The translations under genes were made by a program, and so were the position numbers. Below are positions 1 through 36,206 of a DNA stretch of 64,000 nucleotides, one piece after another. The stretch is from Spizellomyces punctatus DAOM BR117 (Eukaryota). The notes below the pieces were generated by a model, which searched no databases, had not been told where the DNA came from, and saw only the letters and a program-made list of their open reading frames with translations. The stretch lies in the NCBI GenBank assembly GCA_000182565.2, contig KQ257457.1; one strand, given 5' to 3'. Position 1 is the stretch's first letter; each line of letters opens with the position of its first letter.

Positions 1-2994
1 TATTTGAAAGGCGGCAGCCGCTGTAGTAGATATAATAGCATATTTTCCCATGTACACTGTGCCTTGGACTCCTAATCCACCGGCAACCTGTAATGCACCT
101 GTCGTTGTAGAGGATGCATCATTTGTTGCATCCAGTGTAACGATTCCAGTGTTCGCGAGTATTGTCAGTCCTCTAGCGGTCTGTGCTTGAAGCCGAAGGT
201 TACCAATATCGTTTCTCAACGTCATTGTGTTAACGCCTCCATCCACACTCCTATTGTTTCCGTTCAAAAACATCACTCCATTACCTCCAGAGGCCGTTAG
301 ATAAAGAATTGAACAAGCATTCGTCCCTGTATTAGTATTGGTTACAACTAGTGACCGTAGACCGCTAACAGAATTGGCTCCTCCGACGGTTAGGTCACCG
401 CCAACAAGGCATGAACCATTAGTGTCCACTCTTAGACCTAGAGTAGGCGTGCTAGATGTTCTTGGATAGATAAACATTGGTGAATCCTGAGCACCCAGCC
501 ATGTAGAGGCGGATGGGTTAAAACCAAGAAACCCTGCCCCATCAACCCCAAGCCATGTTGATTTTGAGCCGTCAAAATTACTTGAAATAAACACCGATGA
601 TTGTCCTGTTGCAGAGGCTGTAGTTTGCAGACGTGTGCCTGTTATCACTTTGCCTGAAACATTACCTCCAAAAGTAATATTATTCGAAGTTAATGCCGTT
701 ATCTGGCTTCCAACCCAAGGTTTGATGACTTCGGTATCATAATCCCTTAACATCGAGAGGTTGATCGCGGCTTGGGGGTATTCATATTTGATGGTGCGAT
801 AGCAACTCGGTACATCAAATAGTAATCGAGTACAGCCTCCAATCGGGTCTGAAGCAATTGCCACATTGCTTCCAGGCTCTAAAGGCGGCATGAAGGTAAC
901 AGGGTCGACTGGTTCGTAAACTGGATTTCCATCTCCATCGAGTATAGGTTGGCCTTCCGCATCTCGTTGAACCTTACGTTCCCTCTGACCACCGAAAATC
1001 ATTCCCCAAGGAAACGTTGAGACGATTGGGAGGATGGAGTTTACAGCCATGGGAATCGTCAGTGGTGGAGATACCATCGCAGGAAATGGAATAGTAGTCA
1101 GCGGTGTGGCCCCACTAAGAACAACAACATTCCCACCAGGGACATCAGTTTTTAAGATTTCTGCGGCGTCAGACTGTTCCGTATTATCGGTATCCCTTTG
1201 TTTCGATAACGGCGTAGGGTCAATGAGAGTGAAATTGTACAAAGGATAACTGCCGGATATGAGGAGATTTGGGCTGTTACTTACGAATTGTGGAGGAATC
1301 ATGTTGTACTGAATGGTATTACCAACAACGACCACACTTCCGTATGAATTGGTCGAGCCAACATAATTACCTCTTAAGGTATCGCCTACTCGAAGAATCG
1401 TATCACTTCCTGAAAGCGAACATGAAATCAGATCGCCACTAACTTGCACACCATTGATACCTCGGAGGTTGGTTGACAGAATGGCACCATTCTTCTGGAG
1501 TCCAATTCCCGCAGCGATGTTCGAACTGAGAACACCGTTGTTGAGAGTTAAATCGGGCTGTTGGGCTGTGAGAGATAACCTGAAATCATTTTGCACCCTT
1601 TGGATACCATTGGAGGCGGTAAACGTATCGCCTATGGTCCCGCGGCTGAGCATCATTAAGCCAGAGTTGGCATCAACTTTTAGATCGAGTTGAAGGTCAT
1701 TCTGTACTCTCTCGATACCATTGCTACAAGTCAGTACGTCTTTAATGGTATCTGCTTTGACCATTTGGAGACAACTGCCAGCCTCGCATTTGAGAGAGAG
1801 CACCACATCATTGGTCGTTCCCGGTCTAATGGAGACGCCATTAAAGTCCTGAAAAATGTAGCCACCTGTTAACTGGTTTCCTACAATCCGAACTGTTTGG
1901 TTATCAACGAGCACCCCGATTTCACGTCGTCCACTAAACTCTGGTCCGACAGCAATGGCCCCGGTTTGGCTGCCTTGGTAAAAATTGGCCATGTAATCTT
2001 TACTCACTGCATAAGAGCCTCCTCCAATAGCAGGTAATGTTGCGCTTAACTTTACATTGGGTACACGCAACTCTTGAAGCGTGGACGAATAGGTGAATGA
2101 AGAACTTCCCGAGTAGCCATAAGTAAGGTTCCCATACATGATTTGTTCATATCCGGGTGATTTCAGGGATAATCGAGAGCCGGCTTGCGTGAATGTAGAG
2201 GTGTCAGTCATCAATCTAATCGCTGTCATGTCCACTTCCCCCAGAGCGTCTGTTAGTTCACTGAGAGATGAGAAGCCAAAATCGAGCCAACTGCTTCCGA
2301 TATCTAAGATTGAGTCTGCTCCAGACGATGTTCTTATCGCCCCGAACGCCTTAAACAGTTGACTAGTATTGGTTTCCAATTCGTCTTCATTGTTCACCTT
2401 TAGACTTTTATGAAGTTTGATTCCAAGGCCATTATCCCGATACAATGGTTTCTTGAGCGTTTCTAAAGGCGGAGGTGGTGGAAAGTTTACTGATAAGCCA
2501 TTTTCAGTAATGGATAACGAATCGTCTGCACGAATACCAACTGTGCGTATTTCGTAATCCCTGTAGAGCGGAAACTCATAATTGTCCGGAATCACTTTTA
2601 GTTTTTCTTGTTCTACAGTTAAACATGAATCATCAATCTGAAGTTCGATATCATGATCCTCTTTTGAGTAGACAAGAGGAGAATGTGCGGTTACATCGAT
2701 TGTGGTCAAGCGACTGTCCTCATCAATCTCAAGTCTCTCGTTGTCAACATTTAATCCAACGGATACGACGCCATGTTCATTCGTACAAGGCAAGCATTCA
2801 GAGGTGGTTTCAAAAGAGTTGACTTCTAACTCACCATTCTCGTTTGATACTTTTTTGAATTCTCCAACGGCAAACCCCTTGATCTTGGCTCCTGCATCGA
2901 AGCCAACCATTTCGCCTGTCACATACGGTGACAGTAGATTAGTGTTATCTACTGTTCGTAAACCAGATGCGTTTCGTGAATTTATTCCGCTCAT
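1..2994 (-). CDS. Giant fibre/spike-like virion protein of element A (5' part, runs off window)
   Basis: ATG at 2994 (MSGINSRNASGL...) is in frame with the codons at position 1 (...STTAAAAFQI). Collinear with 28559-31560 of element B. Contains PLYRD..VG..DDSL.ITENGLSV shaft-like repeats and a TNDASSTTTGALQVAGGLGV motif. Confidence 0.75.
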   Translation of the reverse strand, partial: MSGINSRNASGLRTVDNTNLLSPYVTGEMVGFDAGAKIKGFAVGEFKKVSNENGELEVNSFETTSECLPCTNEHGVVSVGLNVDNERLEIDEDSRLTTIDVTAHSPLVYSKEDHDIELQIDDSCLTVEQEKLKVIPDNYEFPLYRDYEIRTVGIRADDSLSITENGLSVNFPPPPPLETLKKPLYRDNGLGIKLHKSLKVNNEDELETNTSQLFKAFGAIRTSSGADSILDIGSSWLDFGFSSLSELTDALGEVDMTAIRLMTDTSTFTQAGSRLSLKSPGYEQIMYGNLTYGYSGSSSFTYSSTLQELRVPNVKLSATLPAIGGGSYAVSKDYMANFYQGSQTGAIAVGPEFSGRREIGVLVDNQTVRIVGNQLTGGYIFQDFNGVSIRPGTTNDVVLSLKCEAGSCLQMVKADTIKDVLTCSNGIERVQNDLQLDLKVDANSGLMMLSRGTIGDTFTASNGIQRVQNDFRLSLTAQQPDLTLNNGVLSSNIAAGIGLQKNGAILSTNLRGINGVQVSGDLISCSLSGSDTILRVGDTLRGNYVGSTNSYGSVVVVGNTIQYNMIPPQFVSNSPNLLISGSYPLYNFTLIDPTPLSKQRDTDNTEQSDAAEILKTDVPGGNVVVLSGATPLTTIPFPAMVSPPLTIPMAVNSILPIVSTFPWGMIFGGQRERKVQRDAEGQPILDGDGNPVYEPVDPVTFMPPLEPGSNVAIASDPIGGCTRLLFDVPSCYRTIKYEYPQAAINLSMLRDYDTEVIKPWVGSQITALTSNNITFGGNVSGKVITGTRLQTTASATGQSSVFISSNFDGSKSTWLGVDGAGFLGFNPSASTWLGAQDSPMFIYPRTSSTPTLGLRVDTNGSCLVGGDLTVGGANSVSGLRSLVVTNTNTGTNACSILYLTASGGNGVMFLNGNNRSVDGGVNTMTLRNDIGNLRLQAQTARGLTILANTGIVTLDATNDASSTTTGALQVAGGLGVQGTVYMGKYAIISTTAAAAFQI

Positions 2995-3056: not shown

Positions 3057-3104
3057 TCATGTGATTTATCATGTCCTGGACATGTTAGTCCCCGATCATG
3101 GCTC
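3057..3104. promoter_or_regulatory. Palindromic CATGTCCnGGACATG motif upstream of fibre gene (copy 1 of 3)
   Basis: Inverted ~48-bp homology to 12561-12610; the core also occurs at 9328-9342. Confidence 0.5.
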
Positions 3105-5126: not shown

Positions 5127-6491
5127 TCAAACCACGGTAACAACAGCACCAATGGAAAGTGTAACATTCTCGAAATAACACGTCACCATGCGCACCTTTT
5201 GCGTAGGTGCCGTTGCATGAGTTGTATGCACACGAAGCAAACCATCGCTGCCAGTAAATGAGAGTGCCGCATTACTGCCTTCATCCTTTGATGCAAATGA
5301 CCAGCCAAATGAGAATGCCTTGGAATCATAGTCGGCGAACGACATGTCCATATCTCCTAATTGGTCAAAGTTGTTATTTGACAATTGTGTGACAAGCAGT
5401 GTTTGATTATCACTCGGTGAATGTGTGAAGCCTTGTATTCCACTTGGAATGGTCAAGTTCGGGCCGATTTGCATACGCCACTCGCGTAGTCCCTGGGACG
5501 AATACATTAACGCTTTATCTTTTGTGGTATCATTCAAAACGTCGTCATCGATAAAGGACATCTCCACACCCTGGAGAGAGCGAACGCCAGACATATGGAG
5601 CAAGAAGGTGTTCCGGTTTCCGCCACTACATGCATTTTCCGTTTGGGTTGAGCGCACATAGTCATAGAATATTGATTTACCGTCCGAAATAGCACGAGTC
5701 GCGTTGACAACGGTCGTCGGAGGAGGAGTGATATAAGGGACCAAACACCGAATGTTGGAAACCCGAATCTCACCTACACCGGCGCTTGTAAACACTGTGT
5801 TCGGGTCTGCGAGGGTGATAATGATTTCTAACGCCTGATTTGGAAGGGCCCACACAGGGAAGAACTGGTCATTCGATGGATGGCAAAAACCGACGAACGG
5901 GTGGTGATTAATGGAAATGGTACTTGATGTTGCAAAGATGTTGGTGTTTCCATATCCGGAAAGTTGGCTCAACAATTTCTTACTACCGGTGGATAGATTG
6001 CGGTACGTTTGTACTAGATAAAGAGGATAGTTTGGAATGTTAACAACAGTTTCTCCCCCTGCTTTGATGGTTAATGATTGAATAATGGATTCTAAGCCAA
6101 GGTACGTATTTTTAACACCTGTACCAGGAGTTATCAGGTTCCCTGCATTATCGTATGCAGAGACATCCATGGAGAGAATGAGTTTTTGCAGAATGAAACT
6201 CACCGAATTAGAGTCACAAGTTATCTTGATTGGGGTCAGGTTACGACTTTTTGTCGTATATGTGCTTTGACCAATCGGACTATAGATTGACACGCCTTCC
6301 CACGGGGGTCTGAGTACCCCCTCGNNNNNNNNNNNNNNNNNNNNNNNNNNNNNNNNNNNNNNNNNNNNNNNNNNNNNNNNNNNNNNNNNNNNNNNNNNNN
6401 NNNNNNNNNNNNNNNNNNNNNNNNNNNNNNNNNNNNNNNNNNNNNNNNNNNNNNTGTCATTGGCATATGAATTGTAATCAAATTCAACCAT
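5127..6491 (-). CDS. Major capsid protein (double jelly-roll, PLV type), element A; contains N gap
   Basis: ~450 aa and beta-rich, with a GLESIIQSLTIKAGGETVVNIPNY segment typical of PLV MCP N-lobes. Lies next to the minor capsid and ATPase and aligns weakly to 23332-24459. Confidence 0.75.
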   Translation of the reverse strand: MVEFDYNSYANDXXXXXXXXXXXXXXXXXXXXXXXXXXXXXXXXXXXXXXXXXXXXEGVLRPPWEGVSIYSPIGQSTYTTKSRNLTPIKITCDSNSVSFILQKLILSMDVSAYDNAGNLITPGTGVKNTYLGLESIIQSLTIKAGGETVVNIPNYPLYLVQTYRNLSTGSKKLLSQLSGYGNTNIFATSSTISINHHPFVGFCHPSNDQFFPVWALPNQALEIIITLADPNTVFTSAGVGEIRVSNIRCLVPYITPPPTTVVNATRAISDGKSIFYDYVRSTQTENACSGGNRNTFLLHMSGVRSLQGVEMSFIDDDVLNDTTKDKALMYSSQGLREWRMQIGPNLTIPSGIQGFTHSPSDNQTLLVTQLSNNNFDQLGDMDMSFADYDSKAFSFGWSFASKDEGSNAALSFTGSDGLLRVHTTHATAPTQKVRMVTCYFENVTLSIGAVVTVV

Positions 6492-7015: not shown

Positions 7016-7735
7016 TTAGACATCCGCTACATCATCTGAAAATGCAAAACGAACCGTTAAGGGACTATTCAATGCAACTTCCAAACCGGTCATCGAGTCA
7101 ATCAGATAGAATTCGATTTTAGATATGGTATCATCTACGGGAAGCCATTCTCCCCCATCATTGGTCCAGGTCACTACATCACCGAAACTATCAGGGACAA
7201 CTGCAGCAACTACAGATTGCGCAGAATCATTGAAGTCACTGAGGTAGCGGCTTCCCTTTACTTGAATGTTACTCGTGAGTAGAACTGGATATGAACCCGA
7301 GAGGTTAACTGGGTTCTTCAATGTTACCATTTGGTAATATCCAGTCTCGGTCCAGCGAGACTGCCCGGTCAAAATGTAGGCCGTAGTTCCACGTGTGGCT
7401 GGCAGGATTTTGAACTTCTTAGGCCCTGTTGCTGCTATGGAAATCTTCCTGCTCACTCCATCATAACTAACAGTATAACTCTGTGTTCCGGCGGCGCTCA
7501 TAGCGTCTGCTACTGCTAATGGGAAGTTTGCAATACTGTAGTTTCCGGGCGCGATGGTTGCATTATAAATCGTACTATCGCCTTCTTCTACAAATGCTAT
7601 AACATTATTTGCACTAGATACCAAGTCCCAATCCTGAAGGAAACTCACGGAGAGCACCTTCATCATCTCCATCCTCCTAGGAGGAATGGAAAATGACCTC
7701 GACTTCAGACTGCAATATGTAATCTCGTTAATCAT
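7016..7735 (-). CDS. Minor capsid (penton-like single jelly-roll) protein, element A
   Basis: 239 aa with TIAPGNYS, YTVSYD and NPVNLSG motifs; homologous to 25213-25956 (IPPGTYS, YTVEYN, NPIDLTG). Confidence 0.75.
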   Translation of the reverse strand: MINEITYCSLKSRSFSIPPRRMEMMKVLSVSFLQDWDLVSSANNVIAFVEEGDSTIYNATIAPGNYSIANFPLAVADAMSAAGTQSYTVSYDGVSRKISIAATGPKKFKILPATRGTTAYILTGQSRWTETGYYQMVTLKNPVNLSGSYPVLLTSNIQVKGSRYLSDFNDSAQSVVAAVVPDSFGDVVTWTNDGGEWLPVDDTISKIEFYLIDSMTGLEVALNSPLTVRFAFSDDVADV

Positions 7736-7776: not shown

Positions 7777-8490
7777 ATGTCCTATAAACCACGCCCAATC
7801 TTTCCAGCGGGTAAGAAGAAGAAAGACAATCGCATCCCAGTTGACCTCGCTTCACCGCCTCTATGTACTACGTTGGTTGCCCCAAGGAAAAGTGGTAAGT
7901 CAGCATTAGTTTGTGGTCTGATAGAGGATGTGTATGCAAAGTGTCATGACAAAGTCATTCTGATGAGCGACACCGTTGAGTATGATGCTTCGGTGAAAAC
8001 GTTGGCTAAAACAACAAAACATGATAACATCTATTCCACAGATGAGGTATCGAATGCCTCTATAGCAAAGATTGTGGAAGAACAAAAAAAAGCACACAAG
8101 GATGAAGGTAAGTCATTATTATTGTTCATCAATGATGCCGGAGACTCGGCTAGGAGTGCCGACTTAAATCGAGAGTTATCTAAATTGTACACAAAATGCC
8201 GGCACTTTGGGATTTCCTTGTGTGTGGCTATACAAAGTGTCACTTCACAGATATCCAGAAAAATGAAGAACTGTACAACAGAATGGATTGTCTTTAAGAA
8301 CAATGCAGAGGATATGAAACTACTCGCAAAGATGTTAACGTCGGCCTACAAAGAAGAAAAAGAGGTATTGAAATATCTCACTGAATGCACCACACAACCG
8401 TATTCATTTTGTTATGTTAACATGGCAGCAAACAATGCTAAGGACATGTATCGTTATTCCGATTCAGAAGGGTTCAAGGATTATTTTTAG
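7777..8490 (+). CDS. A32/FtsK-HerA family genome packaging ATPase, element A
   Basis: Walker A APRKSGKS, Walker B LLLFINDAG (IDD expected), arginine-finger motif KCRHFGIS followed by a Q sensor. Confidence 0.88.
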   Translation: MSYKPRPIFPAGKKKKDNRIPVDLASPPLCTTLVAPRKSGKSALVCGLIEDVYAKCHDKVILMSDTVEYDASVKTLAKTTKHDNIYSTDEVSNASIAKIVEEQKKAHKDEGKSLLLFINDAGDSARSADLNRELSKLYTKCRHFGISLCVAIQSVTSQISRKMKNCTTEWIVFKNNAEDMKLLAKMLTSAYKEEKEVLKYLTECTTQPYSFCYVNMAANNAKDMYRYSDSEGFKDYF

Positions 8491-13509: not shown

Positions 13510-15078
13510 ACGTCCCTTGACATGACAACTTGGTTCATTTCAGGTACCCACAGTCTGTAGGCCTTACTCTGAGTGCTGTAGCCGACCATGACTGCCTTCT
13601 TGGCCTTCTCATCAAGTTTTGACCGCTTTTCCTTTGGAATATGAGTGTAGGCCATGCAGCCAAACACTCTGAGATGCTGGAGATCTGGTTTACCGCCTGT
13701 AAACTCTTGGAATGGTGTGGATTGGTTGCTGAGTGCTGCAGTGGGGCTCCTGTTCCTGAGATAGACCGCTGTCATGATTGCCTCGCCCCAGAACTTGTAG
13801 CTGAGTCCACTGTGGTGCAGCATGCACCTTCCCATTTCCACCAGCGTTCTGTTCATCCTCTCAGCAACACCATTCTGCTCTGGTGTGTAGGGGGTGCTGA
13901 ATTGCTGCTGAATTCCCTTCTGCTTGCAGAATTTCTTGAATTCTTCGCCCACATACTCTCCCCCATTGTCTGATCTGAGAGTTTTGATCTTCTGCCCCGT
14001 GAAGTTGGTTGCCCAGGCCTCAAACTCCTTGAATTTGCTGAGAACCTCACTCTTCTCCTTCAGAAGATAAACTGCCGTCATCCTTGACTTGTCATCAATG
14101 AATGTGACAAAGTACTTTGCCCCACCATGACTTGGTGTCTTCATGGGCCCACACACATCACTGTGAACCACCCCCAGCAGTAGAGCTGCTCTAGCTGCTT
14201 CTCCCTTTGGAAAGGGACGCCTGGTGATCTTTCCAATGGCACAGGCTTCACACGGTGATGTTTCTGCGTGATTCTTGACCTCCAGACCGCTTCCCAGCTG
14301 GTTCCTAGCCAAGATTTTGATGCTGTTGACGTTCAGGTGTCCTAACCTGCGATGCCAGAGGTCCAAACTCATTCCAGAGGCTATGTTTGCATGTTCTCTT
14401 GCATGAAACATGTATAGACCGCCACCTAGAGTTCCCTGGATTGCTTCCTGACCGTCTGAAGTCTTGATACAGCATCCCTTGCTGCCAAACTCAACTTTGG
14501 CACCATTTTCAGTGGCTCTTCTTACTGAAAACAAGTTCTTTTCAAGCTTGGGAACAAACCACACGTCTCTGAGGGTACAGAATCAGTTTCTGCCTGTCTC
14601 AAGTGTGATCTGGCCCTTCCCTATTGCCTGAACTGTTCTGTTGTCTGCCAGATGGACTTGAATTGGTGACATCTCTGTGTAATTGGTCATCCAATCCTTC
14701 CTGTGTGACATGTGCTGTGAGCCACCCGAGTCCACAATCCACCAGACTGCTCCCTGAGAGGTTTTGGTGTCCTTTCCTGACTGAGCAAAGAATAGGAACT
14801 CATTCTGAGTTGCCTGACTGGTGCTGGCTTGATTGGCTTGTTGTTTGGTGTCCGCCAGAAACTTCCTGCAGTCCTTCTTGAAGTGACCCTTCTTGTTGCA
14901 ATAGAAGCACTTCCCTGCTATCTTCTTGGTCCCACCATGCTTGCCAACCTTCTGCCCACCATCCCTGCTGAAAAAGGCCTTCCCTTTGCTATCTCCTTCA
15001 CCCCCAGCTTCCTTCCTGCGTGTTTCTTCATGCAAAAGCCGTGATGTGAGGAATTCCAGCGTCAGAGAATCACTCCTG
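13510..15078 (-). pseudogene. Ty1/Copia gag(C-term)-protease-integrase, truncated at SRDV
   Basis: Zn knuckle CFYCNKKGHFKKDC, protease WIVDSGGSQHM, LWHRRLGH..CEAC, and D-D-E motifs VHSDVCGP/RSDNGGEY/QNGVAER. In-frame TGA at 14583-14585. Confidence 0.95.
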
Positions 15079-15465
15079 ACTACAAAGTGAGGCACTTTGA
15101 GACAATTTCATCAAAAATATTCCCAGGGAAAAAGTGCCACAGGATAAAACCAATGGTAAAAATTGGAAGCTTATGGAAAGTAAAAAATTATGTAGAGACA
15201 TGTAGGGATGAGAATTGTCCCCATTTTCCTAGCAAGATTGCAAAAAGAATAGAAATATCCACATGTTTAAATGGCAACATTGGTTTCCTTGTTTACACAA
15301 AAATCCACAGAAGATGTAGGCAACTCAGGCGTCAGAACTCATCCCATCTCAACATTACCTTCGAGGCATACCAGCCGGGATTGGCCGCTCCACGCCCGGC
15401 ATGCCTGCTGGCATCCTCATGTCCGTTCTTCAAATGGACTACATCTGCGCCGGCATCTTCCACCG
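15079..15465 (+). repeat. Left terminal inverted repeat of element B
   Basis: Reverse complement of 36073-36459 with about 6 mismatches. Confidence 0.95.
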
Positions 15466-16539
15466 AGGAATTTCTATGTGTGAAAATGTACCCTTCGGAC
15501 GAACTTTTAACTTTTTCTGCTGTAATCTTGTTTTAGTAGGTCGTGTTTGTACAGGCTCCAACTGACAAATTTCTTTGCAAACTTCTTTTTGTGTTCTAGT
15601 CAATTTTACTGGTCGATGACCTGGTTTCTCGGTAATCGGTGCATTGGTTTTCTGTAATTCATAGTATTTGAAATGCTGGTCTATTTCTTTACCATTGGCG
15701 TATGCTACTACGAATTGATAGCCATCGACACTGACTATATGGTATACATCATCAGACCATTTTGCCTCATATCCTTTTTTGAAAATATCCCATTTGAGTA
15801 ATATTCTTACATGGTCGCCAATGTCAAACTTCTTGAAATCACTTACAGCCTTGCTATTATCGCGCACATAATCACCATCAGCAACATCGACAGGTGCCTT
15901 TTTCAATAGACTGTGATATGAAGTATTGTAGTTCATAACAAGGTCAGGAAGAGCATCTATGTAGCGCTTAGTTTTAAATATGGTCATGTATCTGGAGATA
16001 ACACTTTTCAGTGTGCGATTAAACCTTTCGACCAGACCCATATGGTTATGGTCAGCAACTTCAGCCATGTAATGGTTTATACCATACTTATTGAGCAATT
16101 GCTCAAAAACAATGTTGTTGTACTCTGAACCCCTATCAGTCGTGATATTTTTAGGACGCCGCCTAGCGAGTAACTTTGTAAAACAATCAGCAATATTTTC
16201 TCTGGTTTTATTCTTGAGAGGAAAAACAAAGGCATAACAAGAGTACACATCTACAATACATAACAGATAATGGTAACCATTGTTGTAGGTAGCATATTTC
16301 TGCATGTCGCACAAATCCGATTGCCATATGTGATCAACACCATTGGCTGTTATATGCATGTAGTTAGGCTTGACAAGAGGTTTGTGTACTTGTTGCACAT
16401 GCTGACTGTCGATGAATGTCTTTATATCCTTTCTGGAAATACCCTGATCCTTGAGTCTCTGGTAGAGCTTTTCTACGCTCTGAAGTCCAGTCTTGGGATC
16501 ATAGTAAACTTTCTTGATTAGTTCGGTTTTTGTCCCCAT
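15439..16539 (-). CDS. Polinton-type RVE (retroviral-like) integrase
   Basis: WQSDLCDM, CIVDVYS, TTDRGSEY, GLVERFNRTLK, YNTSYHS, FDIGDHVRI, FKKGYEAKWS. Confidence 0.93.
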   Translation of the reverse strand: MGTKTELIKKVYYDPKTGLQSVEKLYQRLKDQGISRKDIKTFIDSQHVQQVHKPLVKPNYMHITANGVDHIWQSDLCDMQKYATYNNGYHYLLCIVDVYSCYAFVFPLKNKTRENIADCFTKLLARRRPKNITTDRGSEYNNIVFEQLLNKYGINHYMAEVADHNHMGLVERFNRTLKSVISRYMTIFKTKRYIDALPDLVMNYNTSYHSLLKKAPVDVADGDYVRDNSKAVSDFKKFDIGDHVRILLKWDIFKKGYEAKWSDDVYHIVSVDGYQFVVAYANGKEIDQHFKYYELQKTNAPITEKPGHRPVKLTRTQKEVCKEICQLEPVQTRPTKTRLQQKKLKVRPKGTFSHIEIPRWKMPAQM

Positions 16540-16540
16540 T

Positions 16541-19500
16541 TTAAAAACCGAAAGGAAGTGTCTCTATGACCTTAGACTCAGAGTTAAATTCTTGAACCAC
16601 ACGTTTGTCGTAGACAAACTTGTACTTTTTGCTGGGTGAGTTATTTTTTTCTGGTATGATGATCTTTGTCTTGTTACGCACACTGTGTGTTTTACTAATG
16701 TTGATTTCGCTAAAGTTAAAATTAACACAACTCTCTTTCTCAATCCCTTCATCATCAATGTACCTAGGGTTAAATACTATATCCTTCATAGACTCATGTC
16801 CAAGATTGAGTCCATTTTCATATGAAAGTGCAAAGCCTTTACAGACCGTCTTTGCTCTACCCGTTTTGTTGAGAATGTAAGAGTAATTCTTAGCGCCACC
16901 TGAAACAAATTCTACAATATGGTCGCCTTTCAATTCATCTGTCAGGTCTCCAAGATAATTACCATAGGGCAAAGTCTTTTCAGTTGATCCTATATCATCA
17001 TCAACATATATAATAGAATCAGTATCATAGTACAACACCTTTTCCCCTACAGTATCCAGAACACTGTAAAGTTTACAACGAGCCAAAGCGGTAGTGTATG
17101 CAGCAATGAAAATACTAGTATTCTTGTCATCACGAACAGCAGNNNNNNNNNNNNNNNNNNNNNNNNNNNNNNNNNNNNNNNNNNNNNNNNNNNNNNNNNN
17201 NNNNNNNNNNNNNNNNNNNNNNNNNNNNNNNNNNNNNNNNNNNNNNNNNNNNNNNNNNNNNNNNNNNNNNNNNNNNNNNNNNNNTAGACAATTTTGGCTG
17301 GATCAAGACGAATACCTTGCTTGCTTTCATAGTCGTCAATATACTTTTTTCTGTCGTCATCATTTTTACACCATTTAGGGTACCCTGATGCTTCCTGCTT
17401 GATTTTGAGAAATGTGAAGATGTAATCTTTGAAAAGATCAGATCCCGTATTTTCGAAATGAAGAACCTCATAAACTTGAGAAATGACATAGCCCTTTGAA
17501 AGTGCTAACTTCACTTCCGGAATGCACCAAGTCCCAACAAAAGCCCTCTGTTCAACAGAGTGGCAACAAACAGAGATTCCTTTTTCAGCACAATCATTAC
17601 AAAGAACAAACATGGTCTTGTTGTTAATCTTAGCAGGAAGTACAGGGTGATATAACCCACGAGGGGGTCCTATTCGACACTTGATGAAACCATTGTAGTT
17701 CAGTTGGCCATCAAAGTTGTTAAGAATCCTTGTGGGGAACGAGTAGCAGGGGTACTCTCCAAAAGCGTTTACCCAAGGATACTGTGATGTAAAATCGCAG
17801 TATTTCACTCTTTCCTTCTCAGAACATTTGTAGTAAAGTTTGCTGGCATTTGTTCTACCGCCAAAAAATGCGTTACGAGGATCTAGAGGTCGGATATATT
17901 CAATGTCGAGGTCTTTACTCATAACATAATCACATATCTTCTTGTTTGAGTCATATTCACACTCTGAGATCGAGACATAATTGTAACCTAGAGCAATCAA
18001 TTCTTCATGCTTATTATCGGTATATCGTCTCAAAGACTTATAAGGGACACCACGATAATTAACGGCATCATTGTCTTTGCATTGTTTACACCCATGGAAT
18101 TCACAACCATTAAATTCATACACAGTATTTGTCGAAGGAGAATAGCCATCAGCATAGAATTTTTTCCCATTTAATCGGTCAATCCATTTCTCTCCACCAC
18201 ATAGAACATGTTGCATATCCGGAACGCCATTATCGCGTAGATATTCGAGCCACTGGACAGCCTTGTCTGAATGACGCCGCATTCCTTCTTCATGATGTGT
18301 GGGTATGCTTTCTTCAGGCATGAACATATGCCTGTAAGTCCCCATACATGCCGATGCTATGGTTTTATAAGCCCAAGGATCAATTTCACCATCAGTTGCT
18401 ACAAGGAATTGCTCTCGGAACAATTTCACGGCCGCTGCTAGAATATCGACATCATTCTTGCAGTATTCAACAAGTTCCTTAGTGTAATCAAAAACATACC
18501 TACCCTTCATGCATTCGCGTAGGGTTTTCTTGTACCAGCGTCGTGCATCAGCGCGTTTATCATAGGGCATACTGTCGAATCGGAAATCATCCAAAGACAG
18601 TAAAACGCCTTTATAATCATTTGAACATTTGAACCAATGTGGAAAGTAACCCTTACAAACATGTTCCTCTAATCCAAACATGGAAGGCAACTTTGACAGT
18701 CCCATAGGCAAAATGACATGCTATCAATGAACCGGATGTTGAACTTGGGCAGCANNNNNNNNNNNNNNNNNNNNNNNNNNNNNNNNNNNNNNNNNNNNNN
18801 NNNNNNNNNNNNNNNNNNNNNNNNNNNNNNNNNNNNNNNNNNNNNNNNNNNNNNNNNNNNNNNNNNNNNNNNNNNNNNNNNNNNNNNNNNNNNNNNNNNN
18901 NNNNNNNNNNNNNNNNNNNNNNNNNNNNNNNNNNNNNNNNNNNNNNNNNNNNNNNNNNNNNNNNNNNNNNNNNNNNNNNNNNNNNNNNNNNNNNNNNNNN
19001 NNNNNNNNNNNNNNNNNNNNNNNNNNNNNNNNNNNNNNNNNNNNNNNNNNNNNNNNNNNNNNNNNNNNNNNNNNNNNNNNNNNNNNNNNNNNNNNNNNNN
19101 NNNNNNNNNNNNNNNNNNNNNNNNNNNNNNNNNNNNNNNNNNNNNNNNNNNNNNNNNNNNNNNNNNNNNNNNNNNNNNNNNNNNNNNNNNNNNNNNNNNN
19201 NNNNNNNNNNNNNNNNNNNNNNNNNNNNNNNNNNNNNNNNNNNNNNNNNNNNNNNNNNNNNNNNNNNNNNNNNNNNNNNNNNNNNNNNNNNNNNNNNNNN
19301 NNNNNNNNNNNNNNNNNNNNNNNNNNNNNNNNNNNNNNNNNNNNNNNNNNNNNNNNNNNNNNNNNNNNNNNNNNNNNNNNNNNNNNNNNNNNNNNNNNNN
19401 NNNNNNNNNNNNNNNNNNNNNNAAATGATCCCCTTTACGTAGGATAGTAGCAGGTTTCTCATCGTATCGCTCGTTGTTAACACCTTTGACCATAAGAGGC

Positions 19501-20570
19501 TTACCACCGTTCTCTAGATCAACAATAACGATGTTCCTTTTGAGGAATGAAACCAACTTTGGAAAATCGCCGTAAGACATCTTCTGACCAACAGGTAACC
19601 CGCATCCTTCATAATAGTTAGTAACAATTTTGTCCAGTGGCTTTCTTTGTTTCATGATGTACGCATATTCATTTGTTGAGTGATCCATTGTATGGAATGC
19701 TACGGATAAGGCAACTGCTCTCATACCACAATCGTTACCATTGTTTTTCACAACAATGACACAACTTTTTGACTGTGCTGATAGATGGTCATGATAGTTT
19801 TTGAAAGTGCCGCCCTTTACCGAAACTAAATGATGCACCTCAATAGTCATGCTTTCATCGATTGATGCTATTTCAGCCGATTGCATTCTCGCAGTAATTT
19901 CGTCTATCACTTCAGAAGCAATCAGATCACTAACTGATACAACTTTTGATGACCAAAATCCATTGTGTAGACTTTGATGTTGAAACCCTATTTGCACTTT
20001 GTCACCGTGTTCAAGGCCTACAAGTGATTCCTTGATGACATCATTGAAAAATGAAACAATATCATCATGAGTAGCAAAGGTGTACTTTGGATTGAACCGA
20101 TAAAGTTCCTTTGTATAACCGATACCTTTGATTTTGATCTCTTTGACAGATATTAAAGGTGAGAATGATTCTTGATGCTTTCGAAGATTATACTTACATT
20201 TAGCCCTAGTGGCAGCAGCCTTCTTAGCGGCTTCCTTTCGCTTTTTAATAGCAGCCTGAGCCCTCTCTTGAATTTCTCTCATCTCGCGCTCTTCCGCTTC
20301 TTTATTAAGCCTTCTCGTCTCTCTGGCCTTTTCAGCAATAGCCTGCTTTTGAGCCTCAGTGCATCTCGCAGCAGCAATTCTTTTTTCTCACTCAGATTGT
20401 AGGAATCTTGGTACTCGATGTATTTGAAGGTTCTCTAGTGCTTCTCGTCATTTCTTAGTCCAGTTCTTACATGAGAAGTTTCCAGAGACGATCTTCCGCA
20501 TCATCTTCTCGAAAGGCTTCGAGTCTTCTTTTACGTTTCTGTTCGCGATTGGGTCAAAAATCAAAGACAT
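16541..20570 (-). pseudogene. Protein-primed family B DNA polymerase with N-terminal TP and vOTU-like domains and an internal Vsr-like insertion
   Basis: Motifs RFIDS, KGYFPH, YCKNDVDIL, AFFGGRT, DFTSQYP, IAAYTTALAR, YYDTDS, GAKNYSY. Disrupted by TGA stops at 20448 and 20388 and a 1-bp frameshift near 18712; spans two N gaps. Confidence 0.93.
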
Positions 20571-23181: not shown

Positions 23182-23331
23182 TACGCTGAAATCTAATGCG
23201 CCAATTGCCATTCTCCGAACCGGTTTTTTCGGTCGCGGTAACCCAATCGGTGGAGTTGGTCACGCGATTCGTGCTTCCCGCGTCCGATTTGGGCTTACTC
23301 GCGATCTCTCGAAGACGTCCTCGTCGTTACA
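23182..23331 (-). mobile_element. LTR fragment inserted into element B MCP (remainder in N gap)
   Basis: Near-identical reverse complement of 36941-37090, ending exactly at the TGTAA terminus. Confidence 0.85.
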
Positions 23332-24459
23332 ATGACCAATGTTTTATCTTTTTGTCTCCTAGAGTCCATCCTTTCAAATCAGACATAGTGGGCGCAAACT
23401 TCACATCATTGAAATCCTTGTTATGTTGACTCAATGCATACATCTCAGGGTCAATAGTAGAGACAGATCCTGTTTTCTCAGAGCCATGTCCAATAGCCTT
23501 CCCTTGTGGGAACCGTTCCGTTCCTACTTGGATAGACACTGTTCTAATACCTGCATCGTCTGAATAATTCAGTTTGTCTACATCTGTTAGAACATTGTCA
23601 GTTGTCACCAACATCAATGATGAAACAGAGGACTGTTCGCCTGTTACAAGCGAGAGTTGTTGTACTCGACTATCTTGTCCTGCAAATTCTTGACTCCATA
23701 CTATTTGCATGGGGATAGTCAGGGGTGTAGGATCCTCAGCCTGCATCAAAGCAAGCACTTTATCATAGTAAGCCTTGACCAGTTCAGCAAACTGACATAT
23801 TAATTCATTTTGTTCTACTTTGAAGGACATAATCCCTGTGGATTTTGGGAATATTTTGGAAAGGTCTGTCTCGGCGGTCATCTCCAGGCTTACTCCTCCT
23901 TTCACAAGACAGAGAGGAAAAGCCACTTCATTTTGAAAGAATGATAGCGATGACCCGGTAATGTGTATGCGTTGTTTTGAGCGACCACTGCTGAACAGTC
24001 ATTAGCCGCATCACTCGAATAATACTCGCATTGGCCTAGATGTTGTTTGGTTTCCCATGATGTTAAGGCGTTTTCATGCGCAGTGAACAAATTATAGTCA
24101 TTGAGATCTTCAATGATCCTTCCATTGATCAGGAGAGATTGACGTTTCCATACAGCATCAGTTCCAGATTGACAGAGCCTGTAGTTAGCATCAACTGCTA
24201 CTGCTGGCGAACCATCTGCTTTTAAGCCGACTACACGATATTTGTGCAGCATTTCATTAACGAGCCAGAAGCGCTTGTCGTCTGCTATTTTAAAAACTAG
24301 TTTCCCACCTGGTCGGCAATCTCCACTTCCGTTTGTTGGCTCGAAGCGAACCTGACTAGATGGCTGGAAGTTTAGAATGACTCCATTTTTTGCAGATCTT
24401 TTATAAGTAAATGCCGATGGGACACGTCTGACCTCTGTTACTTCAATATCGGATGACAT
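23332..24459 (-). pseudogene. Major capsid protein of element B, frameshifted (~23915) and LTR-interrupted
   Basis: Two overlapping ORFs (23902-24459, 23327-23926). GTDAVWKRQSLLINGRIIEDLNDYN corresponds to the A MCP segment; adjacent to ATPase and mCP. Confidence 0.72.
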
Positions 24460-24517: not shown

Positions 24518-25165
24518 TCATTTTGAACTTTGTAGATTTATGTGCACAAAATGAAATGGTTTCTTTGTATTATCCATAACGAACTTTTCAAATACATCTT
24601 CAGGTAAAGCGAGAGATAAGCCTGCTTCGACCATTTTCTTGAGTTCGCTTTTCAAAGGTCTAAAAATGATCCAGTTTGTTGCGTTGCTACGTACAGCGGG
24701 ACTATTGTGATAAAAATATTGACTCGACAGGATGCAGGTTATCCCAGTGTGTCTCCCCCGTGTAGCCAACTCATCGAGTGACTTCTTATGTCCTTTCTGC
24801 ATATTGTAGTCATCTATGATAAGAAGTAAATCTCGTTTTCTTCCGCTTCGAACAAATTCATAAAGTTGCTCTTCGTGTATAAAATTGAGTATTTCATTGG
24901 AAATCTTGTCAAATATATGAACCTTTTTGCTCGTTCTTAAGGGGTTCCAATTGGTGTCATGCGGATTTGGTGTGAATATTATGATATTCGAATACTGCTT
25001 CTTCAAGAACAATTTGCATATCACTGCAATGTTTAGCATCTTCCCACAAAATCGAGCGCCATTGTATACAATAAAACCATACTTTCTAGGAAGCCGTGGA
25101 TCTGTATTATCCTTTATGTGTCCAGAGACTTGACTAGATAAAGGGGCAATTGTGATTGGCTTCAT
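24518..25165 (-). CDS. A32/FtsK packaging ATPase, element B (Walker A damaged)
   Basis: GARFCGKM (GKT expected), LLLIIDD, RGRHTGIT, SQ, VRSNA. Confidence 0.88.
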   Translation of the reverse strand: MKPITIAPLSSQVSGHIKDNTDPRLPRKYGFIVYNGARFCGKMLNIAVICKLFLKKQYSNIIIFTPNPHDTNWNPLRTSKKVHIFDKISNEILNFIHEEQLYEFVRSGRKRDLLLIIDDYNMQKGHKKSLDELATRGRHTGITCILSSQYFYHNSPAVRSNATNWIIFRPLKSELKKMVEAGLSLALPEDVFEKFVMDNTKKPFHFVHINLQSSK

Positions 25166-25212
25166 TGCACTTGTTTTTATTTGCTCTCTGTATCTATAAT
25201 ACATTAGAAGAA

Positions 25213-25956
25213 ATGAAAAAGTTGATTCTTGATAGCAACAGGGCGATGAACGGAAACAAGAATGAACCTAAATGGACTCTAGCCGAACCCATCGCATGTG
25301 ATAAAATTCGATACAATTCGATCATTTTGCCCCTTTCGTGGGACATAGTAAATGACAAGAACAATATTGTCTCCTTTTATGATGCTGGGATGGGTAATGC
25401 TGCAAAGACTTTTGCTATTCCTCCTGGGACATATAGCCCTGATGATTTGGTCGATGCACTGACTGCTGGATTTAACTCGACTGGGACACAAGCATACACT
25501 GTAGAATACAATCATATAAACAATCAAATCACAGTGACCGCAGGTACAACACCATTCAAAGTTCTCTACCCTCAAACCACAGCAAGCAAACTGCTCGGAT
25601 TAGTTCAGATGCAGCAATCTGACCCTGGGAGATCAATAACTTTTGCGAATCCAATCGATTTGACAGGTGTTAAGATGGTGCTCGTCTCATCGTCAAACTT
25701 ATGTTCTAACGATGTTGTAGTTGCTGGAGCCGATGATCTAAATATTCTAGCATCGATTCCAATAAGCCAGGAAATAGACACTGTGCTGTGTGCGCAGAAT
25801 TATTTCAATACCAACTTCATTGACACGGAGTCAGGCCTTGTTAGTACCATCAACATCCATTTGCTTGATGCTGAAATGCTATTGCTGATTGATTTACAGG
25901 GCAAAGGGTTCACTTTGGTTCTCGATTGTCATTCCTCCGGCTTTGCAGATGATTAA
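25213..25956 (+). CDS. Minor capsid (penton-like) protein, element B
   Basis: LILDS..., IPPGTYS, ILASIPI, TINIHLLD...IDLQGKGFTLVL; homolog of 7016-7735. Confidence 0.78.
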   Translation: MKKLILDSNRAMNGNKNEPKWTLAEPIACDKIRYNSIILPLSWDIVNDKNNIVSFYDAGMGNAAKTFAIPPGTYSPDDLVDALTAGFNSTGTQAYTVEYNHINNQITVTAGTTPFKVLYPQTTASKLLGLVQMQQSDPGRSITFANPIDLTGVKMVLVSSSNLCSNDVVVAGADDLNILASIPISQEIDTVLCAQNYFNTNFIDTESGLVSTINIHLLDAEMLLLIDLQGKGFTLVLDCHSSGFADD

Positions 25957-28558: not shown

Positions 28559-31500
28559 ATGCCTTTGCCTAATAGCATTCAAGGCACATATATGGTTCGA
28601 AGAAATTTAGAAGTCCTAGATAATTTCAAGTCCGGAAAAGTTAAAGCCAATTCTATCTATGGAGAGAGCCTACGGAATAAAGATGGTATAGTCACTATAC
28701 TCGATTTGGATAGTCAAACACCAAGTCTCTCCATTCAGAAAAATAAAGGTAAATATACCATCTCTCTTGCCGAGACAACTTATGTTTTTCCATTAATTAA
28801 TGATGAACATGATGTCAGGCTTGTAACAGACGATACTCTGCTTATAACAGAAGACGGCTTATCAGTTAAACCTGAGACACTCCTGCAACCTCTCTATAGG
28901 GCTGCCGACTCATGAACAGTAAGCCTAAACATTGATGATGATGAACTAAAAGTGGAGGATGAAAAATTAACAGTCATACCTTATAACTATGATTTTCCAC
29001 TCTACAGGGATGCCGAATCACGTATGGTTGGTTTACAAGCAGATGATAGTTTGCTTATAACTGAAAACAGTCTATCGGTTAATTTTCCTGATCCTGAGAT
29101 GCTGAAAAAGCCGTTGTATCATGACCAGAGCAGCCTTGGAATCAAACTTCATAAAAGTCTAAAGGTGAACAATAATGATGAATTGGAAACTAACATTCAG
29201 TCGGTACTAAAAGCATTTGGCGCTCTGAAATCGAGTTCAGGTGCAGATACGCTGTTAGACATCGGGTCTTCATGGCTCGACTTTGGATTTGATAGTTTGA
29301 CCGAAATGACTGATGTGTTAGGAGAAGTAGACACCACAGCCATTCGCCTAATGGTAGATAGTTCCACATTCAGCCAAGCAGGTTCGAGATTGTCCCTGAA
29401 ATCACCCGGATATGAACAAATCATGTATGGGAACCTTACTTATGGCTACTCGGGAAGTTCTTCATTCACCTATACGTCCACGCTTCAGGAGTTGCGTGTA
29501 CCCAATGTAAAGTTAAGCGGAACATTGCCTGCGATTGGAGGTGGCTCATATGCTGTAAGTAAAGACTATCTTTCGCAATTTTATCAAGGCTCTCAAACTG
29601 GAGCGATTGCAGTGGGACCCGAGTTTAGTGGAAGATGTGAAATCGGTGTGCTTGTGGATAATCAAACTATTAGAATTGTTGGAAATGCACTCACAGGTGG
29701 GTACATTTTTCAGGACTTTAATGGAGTGGCGGTTCGTCCTGGCACTACAAACGATATTATGCTGTCTCTCAAATGTGAGGCTGGCAGTTGTCTCCAAATG
29801 GTCAAAGCAGATACCATTAAAGACGTACTGACTTGCAGCAATGGTATCGAGAGAGTACAGAATGACCTTCAACTCGATCTAAAAGTTGATGCTAACAGCG
29901 GTTTGGCTATGGTCAACAGGGGTACCATATGGGATACCTTTACAGCCTCCCAAGGGGTAACCAGGATGGGGAATGACTTCAGACTGAGTTTAACAGCACA
30001 GTCACCCGATCTTACTCTAAACAATGGTGTTCTGAGTTCAAACATCGCTGCGGGAATTGGACTGCAAAAAAATGGTGCGATTTTGTCAATGAACCTAAGA
30101 GGTATCAATGGCGTGCAAGTTTCGGGAGATTTGATTTCATGTTCTCTTACAGGAAGCGATACAGTTCTTCGAGTGGGAGATACTCTGAAAGGCAATTACA
30201 TTGGCTCGACCAATTCATATGGAAGTGTGGTCATTCTGGGTAATACCATTCAGTATAACATGATTCTGCCACAATTCGTAAGTAACAGTCCAAACTTGAT
30301 TATCACAGGAAGTTACCCTCTCTACAACTTTACTCCAATCGACCCTACACCTTTATCGAAGCAAAAAGACACGGATACCACTGAACAGAGTGATACGGCT
30401 GAAATCTTGAAAACTGATGTCCCAGGTGGTAACGTAATTGTTTTGTCCGGAGTGACTCCGTTGACCACAATTCCGTTTCCTGCAATGGTTAACCCTCCTC
30501 TTACAGTTCCCATGGCTGTCAATTCAATTCTTCCTATTACAAGTACATTGCCATGGGCTATGATTTTCGGAGGGTCACGCAAACGTAAGGTTCAATGAGA
30601 TGCGGAAGGCCAACCTATACTCAATGGCGATGGAAACCCCGTTTATGAACCAATAGACCCTGTTACCTTCATGCCACCACTTGAACCTGGGAGCAGTGTC
30701 GCAATTGCTTCTGATCCAATAGGAGGTTGTACTCGTCTCTTGTTTGATATGCCTTCATGTTATCGAGGCATCAAATACGAATACCCCCAAGCCGCAATCA
30801 ACCTCTCGATGTTAAGGGATTATGATACCGAGGTTATTAAGCCTTGGGTGGGAGGCCAAATAACTAATTTGACTTTGAATAATGTGACATTCAGAGGCAA
30901 TATCTCGGGTAAAGTAATAACAGGCTCACGTCTGCAATCAGCAGCCTCTGTAGCAGGAGGCTCGTCTGTCTTTATTTCGAACAGTTTTGACAGAACAAAA
31001 TCGTCTTGGCTGGGTCTTGATGGCACGGGCTTTTTAGGATATGCTAGTGACACTGCTACTTGGCTGGGCGCACAAGACAAGCCGATTTACATTTACGGAC
31101 GGACATCTAGTGCAGTATCTCTGGGTCTAAGAGTGGATACAAATGGTTCATGCCTTGTTGGTAGTGACCTAACTGTCGGAGCCTCTTCTGTAAATGGTTT
31201 ATGTTCTCTTACCATAAGCAATTCAAGTACAGGGATGAACGGATGCAGTATTCTTTATCTTATGGCCTCAGGAGGTTCTGGAGTGATGTTTTTGAACGGA
31301 AACAACCGGAGTGTGGACGGAGGCCAAGGTGCGATGACGTTGAGAAACGATATTGGTAACCTTCGGCTTCAAGCACAGACCGCTAGAGGACTGACAATAC
31401 AGGCAAACACTGGAATCGTTACGCTGGATGCTACAAATGATGCATCCTCTACAACAACAGGTGCATTACAAATTCCCGGTGGATTAGGAGTGCAAGGCAC

Positions 31501-34500: not shown

Positions 34501-35027
34501 CCACTCCAGCTTTATCGAGTACAACTGGTGCTCTGGTTGTCAATGGAGGAGTTGCGGTTAATGCACATGTTGTTGCAGGAGGGAATCTGTATTCGAACGG
34601 TGCTGTCTATAGCAATGGTCAGGTTTGTGCTACTCAACCATGGGTTGCCAGTCAAACATTTCTAAGAAATGTTCAAGTTATCAAACTTTTGACTAAAGAC
34701 ATGTGGCAATCCAACAATGCCTCAAAGGTCTTCTATGTTTCGACACCTGGCAAGGTACTTATGGAGTGGACGCTCAACCTCCATGGCACAGCAAACTCAA
34801 ATGGTACATTGTCAATATTTCTCGGCCAAAGCGCTGGGTCGATGCCTCTCATGTACTCGAGCGACTTTAACTTTAATTCGGGAGTCAATCGTACAATCAC
34901 AGCAGCCTTCGTTGTTACAGGGATGGCCGATAACATTGCTTACTTCACAAATTTTAGTATCAGTCAGGCTGCTCCTGATAACACAACTGATGTTACACTC
35001 ATCAAAATAACTGAACTCGGACAATAG
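28559..35027 (+). pseudogene. Giant (~2100 aa) fibre/spike-like protein, element B
   Basis: In-frame ORFs separated by TGA at 28913 and 30596 (the latter is CGA in the A copy). Shaft-like repeats and repeated S.TTGA(L/F).V.GG.G modules; N gap 33847-34279. Confidence 0.75.
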
Positions 35028-35816: not shown

Positions 35817-36206
35817 ATGCGTGTTTCGATGCGTTGCGATACTTGTACAGGCTTTAGAGAATATCAACTCTGCATATGTCTGAAATGCGCTGTGTATTCC
35901 TGCTATGAATGTTTGGATAAACTAAAAAACTATTCGCATGGTCGAAATCATGCTATCGTTCATCATGATTGTCAACAGTACATATCTACCGCTTTCGCCG
36001 CTCGCTGTGCCAGCATGCATGAAGAAAGAAAACGAAATCCCAGGGCTACATGTAAAAAAGTAGCATCAAAAGCGGCGGAAGATGCCGGCGCAGATGTAGT
36101 CCATTTGAAGAATGGACATGAGGATGCCGGCAGGCATGCCGGGCGTGGAGCGGCCAATCCTGGCTGGTATGCCTCAAAGGTAATGTTGAGATGGGATGAG
36201 TTCTGA
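35817..36206 (+). CDS. Cys/His-rich Zn-finger-like protein ending inside the right TIR
   Basis: CDTC-x9-CLKC-x4-CYEC...H..H. Confidence 0.55.
   Translation: MRVSMRCDTCTGFREYQLCICLKCAVYSCYECLDKLKNYSHGRNHAIVHHDCQQYISTAFAARCASMHEERKRNPRATCKKVASKAAEDAGADVVHLKNGHEDAGRHAGRGAANPGWYASKVMLRWDEF

Follow-up and report, generated by a model that had tools for sequence, protein, structure and literature searches.

Mosaic tail-fibre genes are long known from bacteriophages, among them the distal fibres of T-even phages and the side fibres of lambdoid phages. Distantly related Alteromonas phages have been reported to share tail fibres (PMC10579305), and among viruses of eukaryotes intertypic fibre recombination has been described in fowl adenoviruses (PMC6950264). 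Here we analyse a fibre gene of this kind in the chytrid fungus Spizellomyces punctatus DAOM BR117, using a 64,000-nucleotide stretch of contig KQ257457.1 (hereafter the window). Two integrated elements lie side by side in it: element A (1 to ~13240), which from its sequence appears to be a polinton-like element with a hexon of the chytrid 'MELD virus' type, and element B (15078–36460), a decaying element of the Maverick/Polinton type. The gene in question is the fibre gene that A carries at the left edge of the window, together with its counterpart in B.

The likeness to phage tail fibres is threefold: viruses with otherwise very distant structural genes share a presumed host-recognition fibre and have exchanged it in patches, each virion retains its N-terminal adaptor, and related fibres carry a C-terminal S74 chaperone. 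Unlike in phages, the hosts are eukaryotes and the fibres are carried by polinton-like or Maverick-type elements that are integrated into a fungal genome; the S. punctatus copies tested (P0008, P0007) yielded no S74 domain. As in adenoviruses, the fibre gene adjoins capsid genes, shaft-like Av_adeno_fibre repeats are found in paralogues, and fibre recombination occurs. However, the adenovirus recombinants belong to one species and have near-identical capsids, whereas the capsid proteins of the chytrid carriers share at most 30% identity, and the chytrid fibre, with ~2000 residues and a different N-terminal motif, gives no significant match to a solved adenovirus fibre.

Fibres of the same protein family are known from the MELD viruses of Powellomyces; six such viruses from one data set combine fibres of the adenovirus type with replicases that differ from one virus to another (Starrett et al. 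2021, PMC8502044). The 'fiber' of MELD virus 3 is 32% identical to ours and shares the N-terminal motif of A. Those parts of PMC8502044 that concern these viruses deal with gene content; they do not describe sub-genic mosaicism, heterogeneity of synonymous divergence (dS) or a tail/body boundary, and Spizellomyces has 0 occurrences in the main text. The fibres of cryptophyte and other protist polinton-like viruses are described as very long and modular, with N-terminal domains of the avian adenovirus fibre type, lectin-like domains and S74, and are thought to attach to the penton (PMC12220804); in the passages of that paper on recombination, which do not concern fibres, no exchange between capsid lineages is described, and 'gene conversion' has 0 occurrences. 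For the Polisuviricotina, Barth, Ha and Aylward (bioRxiv 10.64898/2026.10.13.758929) have reported multi-level mosaicism that concerns the modules for replication and the domains of replicases, in a text in which 'fiber', 'fibre', 'chytrid' and 'Spizellomyces' have 0 occurrences each. One polinton-like virus of S. punctatus, possibly A or B, has already been reported (Bellas and Sommaruga, PMC7805220), and chytrid ATPases are said to fall in two places (bioRxiv 10.64898/2026.06.19.733378). A full-text search of this literature, by passages and term counts, returned no description of sub-genic fibre mosaicism in these elements.

Patchy identity between two fibre genes

An earlier note on this DNA, made from the sequence alone, had described the fibres of A and B as collinear, with almost identical blocks alternating with strongly diverged ones. 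Collinearity was borne out by blastn, which aligned A 1–2607 with B 31558–28961 on the opposite strand at 78.1% identity over 2618 columns, with 543 mismatches and 14 gap openings; because the match reaches base 1, the A fibre is evidently cut by the window edge. The first of the near-identical blocks indeed holds 2 mismatches in 125 nucleotides (A 1672–1796), the start given for it in B being one base off (the true span is 29766–29890), and the second has 1 mismatch in 93 (A 2077–2169, B 29393–29485). In the block that had been called diverged, at 1560–1670, the 30-codon window A 1644–1555 has 64% identity and a proportion of synonymous differences (pS) of 0.74. The N-termini, described as poorly alignable, are unalignable over the first 116 codons of A and ~122 codons of B.

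Sliding Nei–Gojobori analysis in 30-codon windows gave a pS of 0.05 in the near-identical blocks and 0.7–0.99 elsewhere, with the proportion of nonsynonymous differences (pN) low throughout from codon 117. A two-state hidden Markov model delimited five low-divergence tracts with 94.7–100% identity, the segments between them having 60–76% (Table 1). Outside the tracts pS was 0.669 and pN 0.149, as against 0.105 and 0.015 inside, and four-fold sites differed at 142 of 264 positions (54%) outside and at 7 of 92 inside. The diverged parts, with a pN/pS of 0.22, are under purifying selection. Among the 717 identical-residue codon pairs able to differ synonymously, the longest run of identical codons was 29, a length reached in 0 of 20000 permutations, and the between-window variance was likewise matched in 0 of 20000; binomial tail probabilities for the tracts ranged from 1e-6 to 1e-18 before correction for 2631 positions. 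By permutation and by the hidden Markov model, synonymous divergence along the gene is heterogeneous beyond chance and not uniform.

Outside the fibre the two elements are far apart, in keeping with the claim of the earlier note that they are otherwise distant and that their capsids and ATPases barely align. The ATPases share 24.5% identity over 196 residues and the penton-like proteins 29.7% over 138, a K/E-rich protein reaches 43% over 60 residues (E 0.002), the major capsid proteins give no significant match to each other, and the gene order differs.

Since the genome holds at least ten fibre copies, A and B included, and so many similar copies are a known hazard to assemblers, near-identical blocks could in principle come from paralogous reads that were collapsed or mixed into a consensus; moreover, the 38-nt reads from chromatin immunoprecipitation (ChIP) are too short to span a tract. 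We regard this as very improbable. Logan contigs, assembled separately from other runs of the same organism, show 0 differences to A over 1–346, 430–708, 658–892, 983–1227 and 1198–1699, and thereby span tract 4 at both ends, tract 5 at its border and tract 3 at one end; the pieces listed reach no border of tract 1 or tract 2. Among the best 40 of 476 variant rows, the tracts were hit at 1726, 2042 and 2074 (A in the minority) and at seven positions of tract 5, where only 127 and the pair 157/158 match differences between A and B and the letter changes at 84, 87 and 88 do not; no hidden divergent version of A is apparent in these 40 rows. The blocks also hold 1–2 real differences each, both genes stand on one contig, and the annotated proteins of other copies independently show a similar mosaic.

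Exchange within a fibre family and the lineage-specific tail

Searches retrieved four copies that have the N-terminus of A (SPPG_08705, 01935, 08452 and 07587) and four that have that of B (SPPG_05632, 08557, 05486 and 08833); two fibre copies are intact at 2035 residues. We applied the pairwise homoplasy index (PHI) test to eight copies over A residues 117–745, with 78 informative sites after columns with gaps or X had been dropped. The index was 0.299 against a permuted mean of 0.538 (sd 0.012), and 0 of 2000 permutations were as low. The outcome was again 0 of 2000 without SPPG_08557, and 4 of 2000 for the five copies that reach residue 998.

Trees and approximately unbiased (AU) tests addressed whether the four copies with an A tail form a clade, which had been fixed beforehand by tail type; SPPG_07587 and 08833 were left out. 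The A-tail clade was present at residues 1–116 (support 100/100) and 117–260 (100/99). At 261–345 it was missing from the best tree and was not rejected (AU p 0.146), and it was rejected at 346–445 (p 0.00067), 446–600 (p 0.00015) and 601–745 (p 4.5e-5). Three supported pairs join copies of unlike tail: SPPG_05486 groups with 01935 (100/98), B with 08452 (94/94), and A with 08557 (80/85). When residues 117–745 were taken as a whole, the A-tail clade was recovered (98/96) on a very short branch, so some lineage signal persists. In the comparison of A, its sister SPPG_07587 and B over residues 117–790, A agreed with the sister at 68 sites, A with B at 26 and the sister with B at 23, with 5 others. 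The pattern joining A to its sister is near-exclusive up to residue ~270; beyond it, A and B agree in runs at 286–298, 608–635, 742–762 and 778–782, and the sister agrees with B at 462–479 and 528–580. Within tract 2, A shares residues 286, 294 and 298 with B but not with SPPG_07587.

Judged from these alignments, fibre sequence has been exchanged repeatedly across both capsid types beyond residue 345, and it has involved a whole family, with at least ten members in this genome, and not simply the pair of A and B. The earlier proposal of repeated recombination or gene conversion of the fibre therefore stands, on the mosaic pS, the PHI test and the AU rejection in three of the four segments past residue 260.

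Short DNA reads matched at 80% likeness gave a depth of 3.5–7 over most of the A fibre, with peaks of 35 over 1681–1800, 22.5 over 2041–2160 and 21 over 121–240. The raised depth over the tracts indicates that most genomic copies share them. This surplus, with reads of ~5–8 times more copies on the tracts than on their flanks, and the coincidence of the tracts with the best conserved parts of the protein, could also be read as sequence held in place by a function of the DNA or RNA (a promoter, a packaging or splicing signal, an RNA structure) and not exchanged at all. We think this improbable, because tract 2 does vary, with several amino-acid changes there in SPPG_08705, SPPG_05632 and SPPG_07587, and because it leaves the incongruence outside the tracts unexplained. 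RNA folding z-scores were -1.16, -0.28, -0.36, -0.26 and -1.09 for the tracts and 0.77, -0.20 and 1.65 for three controls, none of them significant; no opposite-strand open reading frame (ORF) is common to the A and B fibre copies; and the homologous segment of the Powellomyces fibre is moderately conserved only.

The front of the gene behaves differently from the shared body. The A tail (residues 1–116) has 62–95% identity to other A-type copies and 14–26% to B-type copies, and the lineage-specific part extends to residue ~260, beyond these unalignable first 116. Several positions of the A-type N-terminal motif are invariant in 17 relatives from several chytrid genera, and the B-type tail is also present in one further relative. 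Fibres with an A tail adjoin A-type hexons in four of four cases (the window, SPPG_08452/08453, 08705/08707 and 07587/07589) and fibres with a B tail adjoin the B penton-like gene in two of two (the window and SPPG_08833/08834). Tail type thus follows the capsid neighbour in 6 of 6 known cases; four copies are without a known neighbour. Lineage specificity of residues 1–260 and this concordance agree with the suggestion that each element has kept its own N-terminus, and the tail presumably docks on the capsid, at its cognate penton.

Relatives of the fibre were collected by a HMMER scan of 1.84 billion representative proteins at E <= 0.001, which returned 214. Twenty of them were looked up; nine are named by organism, and all nine are chytrid records (Spizellomyces 'palustris', Powellomyces hirtus, Fimicolochytrium, Phlyctochytrium, Thoreauomyces) or the Powellomyces MELD virus 3 'fiber', the others being Logan, ENA and JGI records. 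The five word-indexed homologues of the 1–2994 product all come from S. punctatus. The Pfam family Av_adeno_fibre scored above its cut-off in SPPG_08705 (25.4 bits), SPPG_01935 (24.7 bits) and four distant relatives. Peptidase_S74 stands at the C-terminus of five relatives and F5_F8_type_C in three; Peptidase_S74 is absent from full-length SPPG_01935 and from the C-terminus of B. The fibre found no related loci in IMG/VR, and the hexon alignment found no match in IMG/VR or metagenomes, nor did the JGI-derived relative P0033. We infer a trimeric fibre that would bind its receptor with the distal part.

The receptor-binding head is probably located at the far C-terminus (B 34287–35027), which for A lies beyond the window. 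The last 246 residues of B are 90% identical to the C-terminus of the intact 2035-residue fibre SPPG_01935. The earlier note had called the shared part a receptor-binding module. The sharing is confirmed, but what the window holds of it in A is tail, shaft and middle body, and since the probable head falls outside the region that the note covers the name can be used only presumptively. In the middle of the fibre (A 895–1077, residues ~640–700; B 30480–30660) there is a hydrophobic Pro/Gly/Ala-rich stretch, after which come a run of basic residues and a D-x-G-N-P motif. Distant chytrid relatives have retained this region, which could be membrane-active or a site of cleavage; the IFGG directly before the basic run resembles the adenovirus protease consensus. 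A 53-nt match (89%) between A 234–286 and B 34340–34392 represents an internally repeated fibre module.

Where and when the patches were exchanged

Any explanation has to accommodate the mosaic, the phylogenetic incongruence, the link between tail and capsid and the purifying selection, all of which the data demonstrate. The one that we prefer, with a probability of roughly 0.55, is a shared pool of fibres with lineage-specific adaptors, exchanged mostly during replication in one cell. A and B would be integrated viruses of different capsid lineages, each with a vertex fibre of 2000 residues resembling those of adenoviruses and phages. The first ~260 residues would form an adaptor (tail and proximal shaft) that stays with its own capsid genes, presumably docking on the cognate penton, and both lineages would draw the long body and head from one common pool. 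Repeated homologous recombination between fibre genes would mix this pool, leaving near-identical patches of tens to a few hundred nucleotides in a near-saturated synonymous background. Most of the exchange would take place while genomes replicate in the same cell, and this would include recombination of an active virus with the copies already integrated there, in the way that temperate phages recombine with defective prophages. Integrated copies would then be snapshots of the virus population that later decay by CpG deamination.

Exchange at the virus stage is favoured by the nearest neighbours across tail types, which lie on different contigs, and by the adjacent A and B, which are not mutual nearest copies at residues 601–745. 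In addition, the intact frames and the pN/pS of 0.22 indicate that the copies are independent integrations of evolving viruses and not dead duplicates.

Several observations weigh against this explanation. A tract size of 41–225 nucleotides is typical of ectopic gene conversion. The differences within tracts are enriched in CpG transitions (7 of 18 versus 66 of 566, Fisher p 0.0037, a post hoc comparison), and such enrichment is a signature of chromosomal, methylated DNA. Tracts 1–4 diverge at 6 of 359 nucleotides, no more than the terminal repeats of B (6 of 388), so that the exchange would be as young as the integration of B, or younger. The multi-copy tests used protein sequences, some of them from imperfect gene models, and the segments for the AU tests were chosen after the sliding identity table had been seen. 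The identity of the protein as a fibre is likewise less than firm: the A fibre itself scored 12.2 bits against Av_adeno_fibre, where the cut-off is 22.7; the structure model of A residues 1–998 was unusable (mean pLDDT, the predicted local distance difference test, 28.5) and that of residues 130–600, built from 32 sequences, was a beta-hairpin ladder of poor quality (pLDDT 58.7); Foldseek found nothing in the PDB at E <= 0.001 for the latter; and sequence searches of the PDB with A and with SPPG_01935 gave 0 matches each. Reovirus sigma1 and other fibres were the best structural matches, with an E of 0.045 and, in the VIA wide search, a Z of 2.6, both short of significance.

Much of this would fit patches made solely in host chromosomes, by ectopic gene conversion among integrated, non-replicating copies, and the arrangement of the locus invites that idea, with A and B 26 kb apart and inverted on one contig. 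At five of the seven CpG transitions in the tracts the derived state is in B. According to PMC12695648, 5-methylcytosine in Spizellomyces is confined to transposons. B is decayed, with a ratio of observed to expected CpG (CpG o/e) of 0.60–0.70 and two CGA-type nonsense codons, and in the tracts it is still at least 98% identical to the fresher A (CpG o/e 0.86–0.89). Taken together, the CpG enrichment, the methylation, the CpG ratios and the divergence of the repeats imply that the tracts were identical at or after integration, and chromosomal copies were probably involved as donors or recipients. An RNA run, of which ~6% was covered, had 8 reads on the stretch. As an account of all the patches, however, we hold conversion confined to chromosomes to be rather unlikely, and less probable than exchange between replicating viruses. 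The contig distribution of the cross-type partners and the relation of A and B at 601–745 speak against it, as do two intact frames of 2035 codons, an A frame of at least 998 codons and the pN/pS, and so does a single fibre family common to different viruses from one Powellomyces data set. The nonsense codons of B are unseen in the other copies, though gene models would avoid stops. On the present data, exchange at the virus stage and exchange between chromosomal copies are indistinguishable.

A more speculative version, which we consider doubtful, makes the integrated fibres a chromosomal archive from which viruses of both types repair or re-assort their fibres, with a fixed boundary at ~260. 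In that case the near-identical tracts would be preserved as linkers for recombination, comparable to the conserved motifs by which adhesin swapping is promoted in the fibres of T-even phages. If it were true, the fungal genome would be part of the viral recombination pool and no graveyard.

The carriers and their surroundings

Table 1. Positions of the fibre genes, their low-divergence tracts and other features of elements A and B in the window
Feature	Position	Strand	Remarks
A fibre gene, first 998 codons	1..2994	-	open ORF, no stop; leaves the window at position 1
A-type N-terminal tail, residues 1-116	2647..2994	-	unalignable with B
Proximal shaft, residues 117 to ~270	2185..2646	-	aligns with B yet lineage-specific
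Tract 1	A 2389..2429	-	41 nt, 0 mismatches vs B 29133-29173
Tract 2	A 2043..2169	-	127 nt, 2 mismatches vs B 29393-29519
Tract 3	A 1670..1797	-	128 nt, 2 mismatches vs B 29765-29892
Tract 4	A 731..793	-	63 nt, 2 mismatches vs B 30769-30831
Tract 5	A 1..225	-	225 nt, 12 mismatches vs B 31334-31558; incomplete at the window edge
A major capsid protein ('hexon')	5127..6491	-	69% identity to 'TPA_asm: hexon [Powellomyces chytrid fungus MELD virus 5]'
A penton-like protein	7016..7735	-	homologue of B 25156-25956
A packaging ATPase	7777..8490	+	phrog_2666, E 1e-8; 24.5% identical to the B ATPase
B left terminal inverted repeat	15078..15465	.	388 nt, 6 mismatches vs 36073-36460
B integrase (rve)	15439..16539	-	Pfam rve, E 2.7e-16
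B protein-primed family B DNA polymerase (pPolB)	17047..20282	-	two ORFs and masked runs
Probable B major capsid protein	23327..24459	-	two overlapping ORFs, then a masked run
B packaging ATPase (A32-like)	24518..25204	-	Pfam Pox_A32, E 5.3e-5; phrog_2666
B penton-like protein (putative)	25156..25956	+	29.7% identical to A 7016-7735
B fibre pseudogene	28559..35027	+	~2150 codons; in-frame TGA at 28913 and 30596
B right terminal inverted repeat	36073..36460	.	pairs with 15078-15465

Mobile elements fill the left 37 kb of the window, and the right half holds ordinary eukaryotic genes: two pentatricopeptide repeat (PPR) proteins, a Bin3 methyltransferase and a Pre-SET protein. The window is masked in part, by five runs of N.

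In addition to the fibre, A encodes a packaging ATPase, a Dam-like methyltransferase and a major capsid protein. Its hexon is 92–93% identical to SPPG_02195 and SPPG_08707, and the hexon of Powellomyces MELD virus 5 resembles Pfam Capsid_N weakly, at an E of 0.003 that is below the cut-off. In its ESM Atlas features the A penton-like protein comes close to viral DUF5901 clusters (score 0.98), which we take as a lead only; the Atlas had no usable match for the 499-residue product of 3103–4602. Pfam at E <= 10 gave no match for the penton-like and capsid candidates. Neither a replicase nor an integrase was recognised by Pfam or PHROG in the visible part of A, 9340–13240 included; its other end lies beyond the window. 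The product of the ORF at 9340–10764 contains acidic 'DNNG(S/P)SE' repeats, nearly identical and one after another, and at its C-terminus a C2H2 zinc finger. The palindromic motif CATGTCYRGGACATG occurs only at three intergenic sites of A (3069–3085, 9327–9343 and 12582–12597), one copy lying ~75 nt upstream of the fibre start. Its 5 matches over both strands were equalled in 0 of 100 shuffles, and it may be a shared promoter or regulator site.

The polymerase of B matched Pfam DNA_pol_B_2 at 17047–18711 (E 2.9e-25). TCCT flanks the element on both sides, a duplication of 4 bp and not of the 6 bp that is the usual figure for rve integrases (PMC12220804). Relatives of the B penton-like protein, a function assigned tentatively, are found in S. 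punctatus, Powellomyces and Geranomyces. From the arrangement of its ORFs and the character of its sequence, 23327–24459 probably encodes the B major capsid protein, a candidate for which Pfam gave no family match, and no adenain-like cysteine protease was matched by Pfam or PHROG among the ORFs scanned in the partly masked B.

B lies within a copia element, whose gag is at 36438–37076 and whose zinc knuckle, protease and integrase are at 15095–13326; the fragment has a CpG o/e of 0.32 and apparently lacks a reverse transcriptase. An inverted repeat of 150 nt (23183–23332 and 36940–37089, 99% complementary) has one arm adjoining a masked run in the B capsid region and the other in the copia gag, which points to another copia fragment within B. 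GC-rich repeats, short and in both forward and inverted orientation, are spread across B (15365–15450, 21449–21494, 22178–22215, 27726–27927 and 28367–28455) and encode similar Pro/Ala/Gly-rich peptides in several small ORFs.

The TGA of the B fibre at 30596 stands opposite CGA in A, and both TGA positions are R in other B-type copies. Reassignment of TGA as the cause of these stops was rejected, A having none in 998 codons and the other copies having R. A masked run (33847–34279) hides the change of frame into 34287–35027. Public gene models fit this family poorly. The 1–2994 product is SPPG_05088 at 100%, a model that departs from the long ORF after ~620 residues into an unrelated tail; the B fibre has no exact protein match; and the SPPG_08833 model merges a B-type fibre with the K/E-rich protein upstream of it and with part of a second fibre copy. 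Annotators should be warned that these 6-kb fibre genes are mis-modelled in public annotation.

A central part in the evolution of eukaryotic DNA viruses is ascribed to polinton-like viruses and Mavericks, in which mosaicism has so far been described mainly for replication modules. The chytrid fibre mosaic is a good new example of a known evolutionary mechanism: phage-style, sub-genic shuffling of a host-recognition fibre between two capsid lineages within one fungal genome, with a clear adaptor boundary. S. punctatus, which is culturable and transformable according to reference 43 of PMC12695648, is a tractable system in which to ask whether the elements produce particles and how the specificity between fibre and penton is encoded.

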